Virus record (IMG/VR): IMGVR_UViG_3300018080_000099
Coordinates: 64,001 to 128,000 of that record
Origin: a virus
Direction: 5' to 3' (one strand)
Length of the DNA: 64,000 bases
Shown: piece by piece, positions 25,429-26,636 of the stretch
How positions within the stretch are numbered: the first letter of the stretch is position 1
Layout: every line of letters starts with the position of its first letter
The notes under the pieces: model-generated
Database searches by the model: none
Seen by the model: only the letters and a program-made list of their open reading frames with translations
What the model was told of the DNA's origin: nothing
Made by a program: the position numbers and the translations under genes

Positions 25429-26106
25429 ATGGGTATGGGATATACAATACGTCAAATCCGAAAAAGAGTGTACCTCGTTGAGGCTCACTCACAGTACGCC
25501 CTGTGTTCCATGTTCATGCGTCCACAGGAGTTCTACGAGTCGCCCTTAGAAGGTATCAAGGGCAACTATTTCTCCACCGAAGAATTCATGGATAAGTACG
25601 CGGCAACGAAGCCGGACGATTTCTTTTCGTACTATCAGGACTGGATGGGCTTCAATATTCCCGGCGAAGTCCTCATGAAGTTCTTCGAGACATTCAAGCA
25701 TGATTACACAGCCAAAGAGGTTGAGTTGCGTGACTTGGTGCTTGGTATTGTCAAGAACACCGATAAGCCCTTCTACATCGTTGGAACGGTTGAAGGTGAA
25801 AACTACGCCATGCAACATGAGCTTGCTCATGCATACTGGTATCTGTTCGATGAATACCGTGTGAAGATGGAAGAGCTTCTGGGAACCATTGAGATAAATA
25901 TGCTTAATGAAGCCAACATGGCTCTGACCAAGGAAGGCTACGATAAGGCTTCCATGCATGATGAGTTTCAGGCATACATGGCAACCGAGACAAAGCACAC
26001 CGCCCAGCACTATCTGGGTTGGCAGGACTACGACAAGAGAAAAATTCCGGTAAAGGAATTCAAAGAATACTTCAAAGAGTTCGATTCAAAGCAGGAGAAG
26101 ATATGA
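25429..26106 (+). CDS. hypothetical protein with an HExxH motif (possible zinc metallopeptidase)
   Basis: QHELAHAYWY; 225 aa. Confidence 0.45.
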   Translation: MGMGYTIRQIRKRVYLVEAHSQYALCSMFMRPQEFYESPLEGIKGNYFSTEEFMDKYAATKPDDFFSYYQDWMGFNIPGEVLMKFFETFKHDYTAKEVELRDLVLGIVKNTDKPFYIVGTVEGENYAMQHELAHAYWYLFDEYRVKMEELLGTIEINMLNEANMALTKEGYDKASMHDEFQAYMATETKHTAQHYLGWQDYDKRKIPVKEFKEYFKEFDSKQEKI

Positions 26107-26636
26107 CAACATTTACTGAGTTCGCAGAAGGCAAGGAGATGATTGAGAAGGCCGATGCCTTTGCGGAAAAGAAACACGCAGGACAGAAAAGAAAGTTCAC
26201 GGGTGAACCGTACATCGTTCATCCTCGTGCCGTAGCTGAGGTTGTTGAGGAGTACGGCGGCGATTCAAATGAGATTGCCGCTGCTTTGCTACACGACACC
26301 CTTGAGGACACCGACACCGAATACGAGGAGCTAGAACAGGAGTTCAACAGGGATGTCGCCCAGTACGTTCTTGAACTGACGCATGACATTAAGGACAAGT
26401 CGAAGAAAGGCGAAATCCTTGCTGACAAGATGAACCATATGTCGACCGGCGCATTGCTAATAAAGCTTGCCGACCGACTGAAAAACGTTTCGGACTTCGA
26501 TACAGCTGACCCGAAGTTCGTGGCAAGGTACAAACCTGAAACAGAATACATCCTCGATAACCTCAAGACTCCGCACCTTAAGGAGCCGCATAGAAGGCTC
26601 GTGGATGCCATTCGGAAAGCCATTGAGCCCTTCTAA
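26103..26636 (+). CDS. RelA/SpoT-type HD-domain (p)ppGpp hydrolase (small alarmone hydrolase)
   Basis: KKHAGQKRKFTGEPYIVHPRAVAEVV...GGDSNEIAAALLHDTLEDT conserved HD-domain signature; RBS AGGAGA. Confidence 0.75.
   Translation: MTTFTEFAEGKEMIEKADAFAEKKHAGQKRKFTGEPYIVHPRAVAEVVEEYGGDSNEIAAALLHDTLEDTDTEYEELEQEFNRDVAQYVLELTHDIKDKSKKGEILADKMNHMSTGALLIKLADRLKNVSDFDTADPKFVARYKPETEYILDNLKTPHLKEPHRRLVDAIRKAIEPF

Follow-up and report, generated by a model that had tools for sequence, protein, structure and literature searches.

Does an element deposited as viral carry an enzyme able to erase the alarmone signals of its bacterial host, and which products would such an enzyme remove? The question is raised by a stretch of 64,000 nucleotides covering positions 64,001 to 128,000 of the IMG/VR record IMGVR_UViG_3300018080_000099 (hereafter the window, to which all coordinates refer), where an open reading frame (ORF) at 26103..26636 on the + strand specifies a stand-alone RelA/SpoT-family HD_4 domain of 177 aa. 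An earlier note on this DNA had proposed that the product is a phage-encoded, stand-alone RelA/SpoT-type HD hydrolase. Profile searches, residues aligned with human MESH1, the predicted fold and the single-domain architecture all agree with a stand-alone hydrolase of this type. Judged by its sequence and structural model, the gene encodes a small alarmone hydrolase (SAH) whose predicted active site is intact.

A stand-alone hydrolase domain of the RelA/SpoT family

The reading frame starts with ATG at 26103 and ends with TAA at 26634-26636. Both the frame and the two motifs quoted in the earlier note were found exactly as given there, HAGQKRKFTGEPYIVHPRAVA corresponding to residues 25-45 and AALLHDTLEDT to residues 59-69. 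Direct reading of the sequence reveals a Shine-Dalgarno element AGGAG (26093..26097, + strand) 5 nt ahead of the ATG, and the ATG itself overlaps the stop codon of the preceding gene, here called up225, as ATGA. An independent (ENA) annotation of the same contig (L085) calls the same 177-aa gene with an HD_4 domain.

Pfam HD_4 and HD, the two families that had been suggested for verification, both match the protein and are the only ones to exceed the curated Pfam cutoffs in it. With the HD_4 profile (PF13328) the score was 72.3 bits, above the gathering score of 27.2, at E 4.8e-20, and the alignment spans profile positions 3-145 of 156; the match to HD was weaker (E 6.7e-07). The phage family PHROG 990, described as 'metal-dependent phosphohydrolase', was matched at 5e-36. 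The NCBIfam model of the long enzymes, TIGR00691 (spoT_relA), was covered at positions 3-123 of 687 with 105 bits vs. a cutoff of 499, and such a partial, sub-cutoff match is the pattern expected of a hydrolase-only protein. The 177 residues contain just the hydrolase domain; synthetase, TGS and ACT domains are absent. The identity of a long RelA/SpoT homologue (RSH), i.e., Rel, SpoT or RelA, was ruled out, since the ORF stops at residue 177 and the next ORF encodes a hydrophobic 105-aa protein.

The search for homologues returned 2551 sequences at E<=1e-5. The top relative of solved structure is human MESH1 (3nr1, E 5.6e-22), followed in the PDB sequence ranking by Rel/SpoT hydrolase domains and bacterial SAHs. 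Thirteen residues, H25, Q28, R30, Y37, H40, H64, D65, E68, D69, K121, D124, R125 and N128, are invariant in 33 relatives. The metal-ligand set H40, H64, D65 and D124 aligns with H35, H61, D62 and D122 of MESH1, the E68/D69 dyad with E65/D66, R30 with R24, and N128 with N126. The loss of catalytic His/Asp residues, which the earlier note had named as the finding that would speak against its proposal, was thus not observed: none is missing on the MESH1 alignment.

The AlphaFold2 model of the protein has a predicted local distance difference test (pLDDT) score of 95.8, and its all-helical HD fold superposes on the solved RSH hydrolase domains. When the model was compared with the PDB by Foldseek, the highest template modelling (TM) scores were obtained with MESH1 (0.81) and the Pseudomonas aeruginosa SAH (0.78-0.80), with Rel/SpoT, RelH and Aph1 ranking lower; all 46 of the 46 matches at E<=1e-3 were RSH hydrolases or SAHs.

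Proposed function and its alternatives

Phage-encoded SAHs are a kind already known (PMC7229694, PMC7824862), with tested examples among them, and the protein described here is a new, fairly divergent member of this experimentally characterised kind and not a new category. Jimmy et al. (2020) demonstrated that the stand-alone SAHs of the Salmonella phages SSU5 (PaSpo) and PVP-SE1 (PbcSpo) neutralise five out of five toxic small alarmone synthetases (toxSAS) (PMC7229694). According to later work, PaSpo reverses the modification that FaRel2 places on tRNA (PMC11559606), and it is in routine use to detoxify CapRel and FaRel2. According to Kurata et al. (2021), MESH1 and ATfaRel reverse the pyrophosphorylation of the tRNA CCA end, so that aminoacylation is restored. 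Iyer et al. (2021) listed an 'HD-alarmone PDEase' (phosphodiesterase) among the counter-nucleotide enzymes of jumbo phages (PMC7824862).

Just as our SAH, PaSpo (SSU5_099) is a stand-alone phage RSH hydrolase without a partner synthetase; the two can be aligned over 148 aa with 40% identity (E 4e-27), and both belong to PHROG 990. PaSpo differs in being longer (213 aa, with a longer C-terminal extension), and its gene, located on a 103-kb phage-plasmid, has no tRNA or RNA-repair genes around it. Human and Drosophila MESH1 (3nr1, 5vxa, 3nqw) fall into the same length class (179 aa) and have identical metal-binding and catalytic residues, but they are eukaryotic cytosolic enzymes, 32-33% identical to the SAH, and NADPH phosphatase activity is reported for MESH1. 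MESH1 is about as close to the SAH as PaSpo is, and these proxies do not separate PaSpo from the Mesh1/Mesh1-L subfamily. The P. aeruginosa SAH (6yvc), Corynebacterium glutamicum RelH (7qoc/7qod), Bacteroides Aph1 (7smg) and C. marina ATfaRel have the same fold and catalytic motif set; unlike the phage protein, the bacterial SAHs are cellular and show weaker similarity to it (37-44 bits), ATfaRel is encoded beside its toxin, and Aph1 is (p)ppApp-specific and shorter (149 aa). The 'HD-alarmone PDEase' of group 2/3 jumbo phages belongs to the same predicted class, although that class is based on computational prediction (PMC7824862); its companions, namely DHH or calcineurin-like phosphodiesterases, RtcB or Rnl ligases and TROVE proteins, recur in the window or in related loci. 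Among isolates, the top relatives come from the jumbo phages BcepSaruman and BcepSauron, with 41% identity and none closer. In all, relatives were found in 96 isolate or metagenomic phage records, including these two, Dickeya/Erwinia jumbo phages, XacN1 and uncultured phages of 480-640 kb, as well as in at least 547 IMG/VR contigs; the neighbourhood counts given below cover 80 IMG/VR SAH loci.

The explanation that we favour overall, and consider probable, is that the SAH is a catalytically competent single-domain RSH hydrolase that erases alarmone-type products of the host. Most probably, a divalent metal (Mn2+ in MESH1 and Rel) would be held by H40, H64, D65 and D124, with E68/D69 acting in catalysis, and the 3′-pyrophosphate would be cleaved from the ribose of (p)ppGpp and (p)ppApp. 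A probable further substrate would be tRNA 3′-CCA ends pyrophosphorylated by toxic alarmone synthetases. The targets would thus comprise the products of the RelA/SpoT-dependent stringent response and those of toxSAS abortive-infection systems of the CapRel, FaRel and PhRel types, and the outcome would be that translation and transcription are kept running for the phage. A host-type consensus promoter ahead of the gene pair and the location in a block of accessory genes suggest that the SAH is probably made early by the host RNA polymerase. The counter-defence context of the window includes an Apyc1-like protein, the NadR/PnuC pair, RtcB and three orphan DNA methylases. The roles that the earlier note had cautiously put forward, i.e., dismantling of the stringent response and hydrolysis of nucleotides used in defence, fit the published work on phage SAHs; it omitted the best-documented activity of these enzymes, the neutralisation of toxic alarmone synthetases including removal of pyrophosphate from the tRNA CCA end.

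Other explanations differ from this one in the substrate or in the partner of the enzyme. Some SAHs are encoded beside toxic synthetases, some phages carry toxSAS (PMC7229694), and the SAH gene is translationally coupled to an uncharacterised upstream gene, all of which would suit a role as a type IV antitoxin, similar to ATfaRel, in a toxSAS toxin-antitoxin module carried by the phage. However, Pfam and PHROG scans detected no RelA_SpoT synthetase domain in the genes neighbouring the SAH, a regular-expression scan of six frames of the 64-kb window gave 0 matches to the synthetase motif E[VILMF]Q[VILMF][RK][TS], and the product of up225 is an HExxH protein of a different fold. The same scan recovered one LHDxxED motif in the window, that of the SAH gene. 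With no synthetase domain nearby and no synthetase motif in the window, the antitoxin role was dropped, and we see hardly any chance for it; the SAH counts as an orphan, as do the other stand-alone SAHs of phages, rather than as an antitoxin of the ATfaRel type. A real possibility, even if not one on which we would rely, is that the SAH serves solely to suppress the stringent response, host (p)ppGpp being the substrate, such that ppGpp-sensitive promoters of the host type and translation stay active during infection; the protected promoters would include the sigma-70-type early promoters of the phage itself and its tRNA genes. Hydrolysis of (p)ppGpp is the founding activity of the family, as the MESH1 and Rel matches recall, the 10 consensus sigma-70 promoters and 47 tRNA genes would need the host RNA polymerase, and the stringent response is reported to restrict phages, other phage countermeasures having been reported as well (bioRxiv 10.64898/2026.01.27.700999). 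Nevertheless, no sequence feature selects guanine over adenine nucleotides or tRNA, and the tested phage SAHs act on the products of every toxSAS class, including pyrophosphorylated tRNA (tRNA-PP). Moreover, suppression of the stringent response overlaps with the broader erasure of alarmone-type products that we favour instead of excluding it.

The surroundings of the gene raise a further, rather doubtful option, in which the main substrate is CCA-pyrophosphorylated tRNA produced by toxins of the CapRel, FaRel2 and PhRel types and the SAH forms an arm of an island for RNA repair and tRNA maintenance, guarding the large tRNA set of the phage. Around the SAH gene are a YqeY-like gene (0.7 kb away) and the genes for a SpoU methylase (3 kb), RtcB (4 kb) and a TROVE-like DUF2828 protein (~10 kb), in a window with 47 tRNA genes, and relatives of the SAH keep similar company: RtcB and a tRNA array in L001, Thg1 and tRNAs 104 nt away in L003, an Rnl-type ligase in L086. 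In an unrelated lineage, Listeria phage P100 encodes DUF2828, a PHROG-990 HD protein, RtcB, a YqeY-like protein and Rnl beside tRNAs. MESH1 and ATfaRel have been shown to de-pyrophosphorylate tRNA, and PaSpo is reported to do so. On the other hand, only 11 of the 80 IMG/VR SAH loci have a tRNA gene within 10 kb (<=10 kb), RtcB occurs at one of them, and Rnl, DUF2828, YqeY and Thg1 were found at none of the 80 with the queries used. Within the lineage of the window, common neighbours can be explained by inherited gene order. The P100 protein, gp162, is very divergent, lacking GQxRK and having E in place of D124 (pairwise E 1e-3). There is also an improbable alternative, in which the SAH would be a metabolic enzyme, either a MESH1-like NADPH phosphatase or a hydrolase of adenosine 3′,5′-bisphosphate (pAp) or 3′-phosphoadenosine 5′-phosphosulfate (PAPS), serving the nucleotide or NAD metabolism of the phage and not signalling. 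Human MESH1, reported to be an NADPH phosphatase, is the top match in both sequence and structure, a MESH1-PAPS complex has been deposited (9chy), and the element encodes NAD salvage by a NadR-like enzyme (8903-9880) and a PnuC-like transporter. Against this, the closest phage homologue whose function has been tested has toxSAS products as its substrates, and the NAD genes are situated >16 kb from the SAH.

Several points weigh against the erasure of host alarmone-type products by a phage SAH. The relatives with tested function are <=40% identical to the protein, and the promiscuity of SAHs (NADPH hydrolysis and the PAPS crystal in the case of MESH1) leaves several substrates conceivable in vivo. 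The element has neither a known host nor a known toxSAS, and early expression is suggested by the promoter consensus match only. No phage structural gene was seen in the 64-kb window or within 8 kb left of it, and tRNA arrays and SAHs are also known from megaplasmids. Finally, the syntenic relative L091 has no SAH, which indicates that the SAH is dispensable. The sequence does not decide the preference among (p)ppGpp, (p)ppApp, tRNA-PP and NADPH; the evidence allows both action on the stringent response and action on toxSAS products, and neither precludes the other.

Three generalisations concerning the RNA-related neighbourhood were examined and abandoned. Adjacency to tRNA genes is not a family-wide rule for SAHs, tRNAs being located within 10 kb (<=10 kb) at only 13 of 83 loci, nor is adjacency to RNA ligases general (1/80 IMG/VR loci). 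P100 gp162, albeit a member of PHROG 990, is too divergent to be a clear SAH and was not retained as an independent case of SAH-RtcB association. As a separate observation, the P100 cluster (L088, 2956-9519) and the TROVE-like/RtcB pair of the window look like a recurring phage RNA-repair gene set. In L001 (10537-12223) a DHH/DHHA1 phosphoesterase gene and a Metallophos gene come after the SAH, and in L003 (6550-7263) the SAH lies near a Thg1-like tRNA 5′-repair enzyme; these neighbours point to a variable phosphoesterase cassette around the position of the SAH.

If active as predicted, the SAH would be a jumbo-phage addition to the enzymes that erase alarmone-type signals or toxSAS damage, and such enzymes bear on the escape of phages from CapRel-type abortive infection and from restriction by the stringent response. 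Its divergent sequence (<=41% identity to the relatives in isolate phages), combined with an active site that appears intact, makes it suitable for comparative enzymology of the choice among ppGpp, ppApp, tRNA-PP and NADPH. To our knowledge, tRNA-end repair by phage SAHs has so far been shown only through heterologous co-expression, and the neighbourhood with RtcB, YqeY, SpoU, the TROVE-like protein and 47 tRNAs offers a natural setting for testing phage SAHs as tRNA-end repair enzymes in infection.

Transcription unit and the upstream gene

A promoter-like site of the sigma-70 type, TTGACA-N17-TATATT, precedes the up225-SAH pair (25400..25428, + strand) and agrees with the consensus at 11 of 12 positions. 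The exact pattern occurs 10 times in the window vs. 0.01 expected, nearly always in intergenic regions: at 529-557(-), 656-684(-), 793-821(+), 1973-2001(+), 9864-9892(+), 10583-10611(+), 15336-15364(+), 22122-22150(+), 25400-25428(+) and 39352-39380(-). By their sequence, these copies are probably the early promoters of the element, used by the host sigma-70 RNA polymerase, and early promoters of this type would point to a host whose own promoters have the classical -35/-10 form. Several copies have in common a spacer core CCTGTAC and an extended -10 with G/TGTATATT.

At the 25400 site, the -10 element ends 1 nt ahead of the first ATG of up225 (25429) and 6 nt ahead of a second ATG (25435), the latter being the start point in a close homologue; with only 6 nt between the -10 element and the second ATG, the mRNA may be leaderless. 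No terminator-like site was found on the + strand between 25400 and 26959. A second promoter-like site, TTGACA-N18-TATATT (26959..26988, + strand), again with 11 of 12 consensus positions, is located in the gap before the gene at 27014 and likely marks the end of the transcription unit. From this arrangement, the unit likely consists of the promoter, up225, the SAH gene and possibly the 105-aa ORF that follows, transcribed by the host RNA polymerase. This ORF (orf105, 26636..26953, + strand) is strongly hydrophobic, and its ATG overlaps the SAH stop codon as TAATG. It has no Pfam or PHROG match, the ENA annotation of this contig leaves it out, and its relatives are limited to a weak partial match in L090; orf105 may encode a genuine small membrane protein or have arisen by chance.

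The upstream gene, up225 (25429..26106, + strand), encodes 225 aa of an unannotated family, without a match in Pfam or PHROG. The family is characterised by the invariant motifs RPQEFYES, GFNIPG, HExAH and DE. The predicted model (pLDDT 91) bears a faint resemblance to zincin proteases. The family had appeared rare when a word-indexed search gave 22 matches, but this view was discarded, as an exhaustive profile search gave 2954 cluster representatives, and 291 IMG/VR contigs contain the family. Family sizes drawn from the word-indexed search alone can be far too low; this search also overlooked the SAH of the source contig, which is full-length and identical.

The genes up225 and SAH are adjacent in the window and in L001. 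Other genes intervene in L003, L086 and L090, and in L091 the SAH is absent although up225 and RtcB are present. In L003, one gene lying between up225 and SAH is Apyc1-like. A gene of the SAH family is located within 8 kb (<=8 kb) in 8 of 80 up225 loci and missing from the other 72, and up225 was found at none of the 80 SAH loci (0/80). These counts, along with the intervening genes and L091, rule out an obligate pairing, so that up225 is a neighbour in a conserved accessory block and not a demonstrated partner of the SAH. We give very little credit to a two-part early counter-defence unit in which up225 would cleave or block RelA or a toxSAS, as alarmone or tRNA pyrophosphokinases of the host, or another sensor, and the SAH would clear the products already made.

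Identity and gene content of the element

The earlier note had called the hydrolase phage-encoded. Its genomic context supports this designation well, and the viral nature of the element is nonetheless deduced from that context, the structural genes being absent from the window. Contigs of 263,805 bp (ENA) and 264,037 bp (JGI) encode a protein with the same sequence as the product of up225 (100% identity). Syntenic relatives of the SAH block are found in IMG/VR viral contigs of 150-254 kb, namely L089 (253,664 bp), L090 and L091, and several window proteins match PHROG families. A nucleotide search with the 24-30 kb part of the window against isolate phages gave no match, and a search of IMG/VR with an exact 42-mer returned neither the 42-mer nor the exact contig. 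The content fits the early or accessory region of a ~264-kb jumbo phage, and we regard the phage identity of the element as highly likely. A plasmid origin was considered, but the best PLSDB relatives are ~37% identical and uninformative for the element. PLSDB holds 197 records with SAH relatives, the best being non-mobilizable Klebsiella records of ~100-114 kb, i.e., roughly of SSU5 size, which may be SSU5-like phage-plasmids.

The window has a GC content of 44% and contains 47 tRNA genes, 46 of which form one ~16.5-kb array on the minus strand (47442-63912) that covers nearly all amino acids and is broken up by genes for HNH endonucleases, an Apyc1-like protein and a B12-radical SAM protein. 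The separate tRNA (34202-34278, + strand) has the anticodon CUA of the amber suppressor type and was labelled Pyl by ARAGORN. The stop-codon recoding suggested by this tRNA was rejected, as reading TAG as sense gave the smallest ORF gain of the three stops. The Apyc1-like gene inside the array (52500-53312, - strand) encodes a metallo-beta-lactamase matching Pfam Anti-Pycsar_Apyc1 with 107.6 bits (cutoff 50); its product may degrade cyclic nucleotides as an anti-defence enzyme, or it may process tRNA in the manner of RNase Z.

Among the genes with assigned families are those for RtcB (30860-32209, + strand), a TROVE/Ro-like protein with DUF2828 and DUF7788 (36988-38460, - strand), a NadR-like nicotinamide mononucleotide (NMN) adenylyltransferase (8903-9880, + strand) and a PnuC-like NMN transporter (about 4160-4720, + strand), the last two being the genes of NAD salvage. 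There are also a calcineurin-like phosphoesterase kept in all relatives of the SAH block (20559-21233, + strand), a 2H phosphoesterase (22876-23256, + strand), two radical SAM proteins (16179-17060 and 19666-20559, + strand) and a RimK-type ATP-grasp enzyme (43894-45294, - strand). Further HNH genes, a uracil-DNA glycosylase (UDG) and three orphan N6/N4 DNA methylases are encoded in the window as well. Within 8 kb on the left side of the window are SprT-like, DnaJ-domain and lambda Ea47 family genes and a long, dense run of ORFs of 40-100 aa.

Downstream of the SAH transcription unit, at 27014-29447 on the + strand, an ORF of 236 aa that matches no family precedes a pair of N6_N4 DNA methyltransferase genes, which overlap each other. 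The 236-aa ORF has a D...EIK stretch that is, by eye, reminiscent of PD-(D/E)xK nucleases, and its pairing with a methylase is kept in L086 and L091; the ORF and the methylases may represent a phage-borne restriction-modification unit. Several accessory enzymes of the window are in keeping with the repertoires for countering nucleotide signals and repairing RNA that have been described in jumbo phages.

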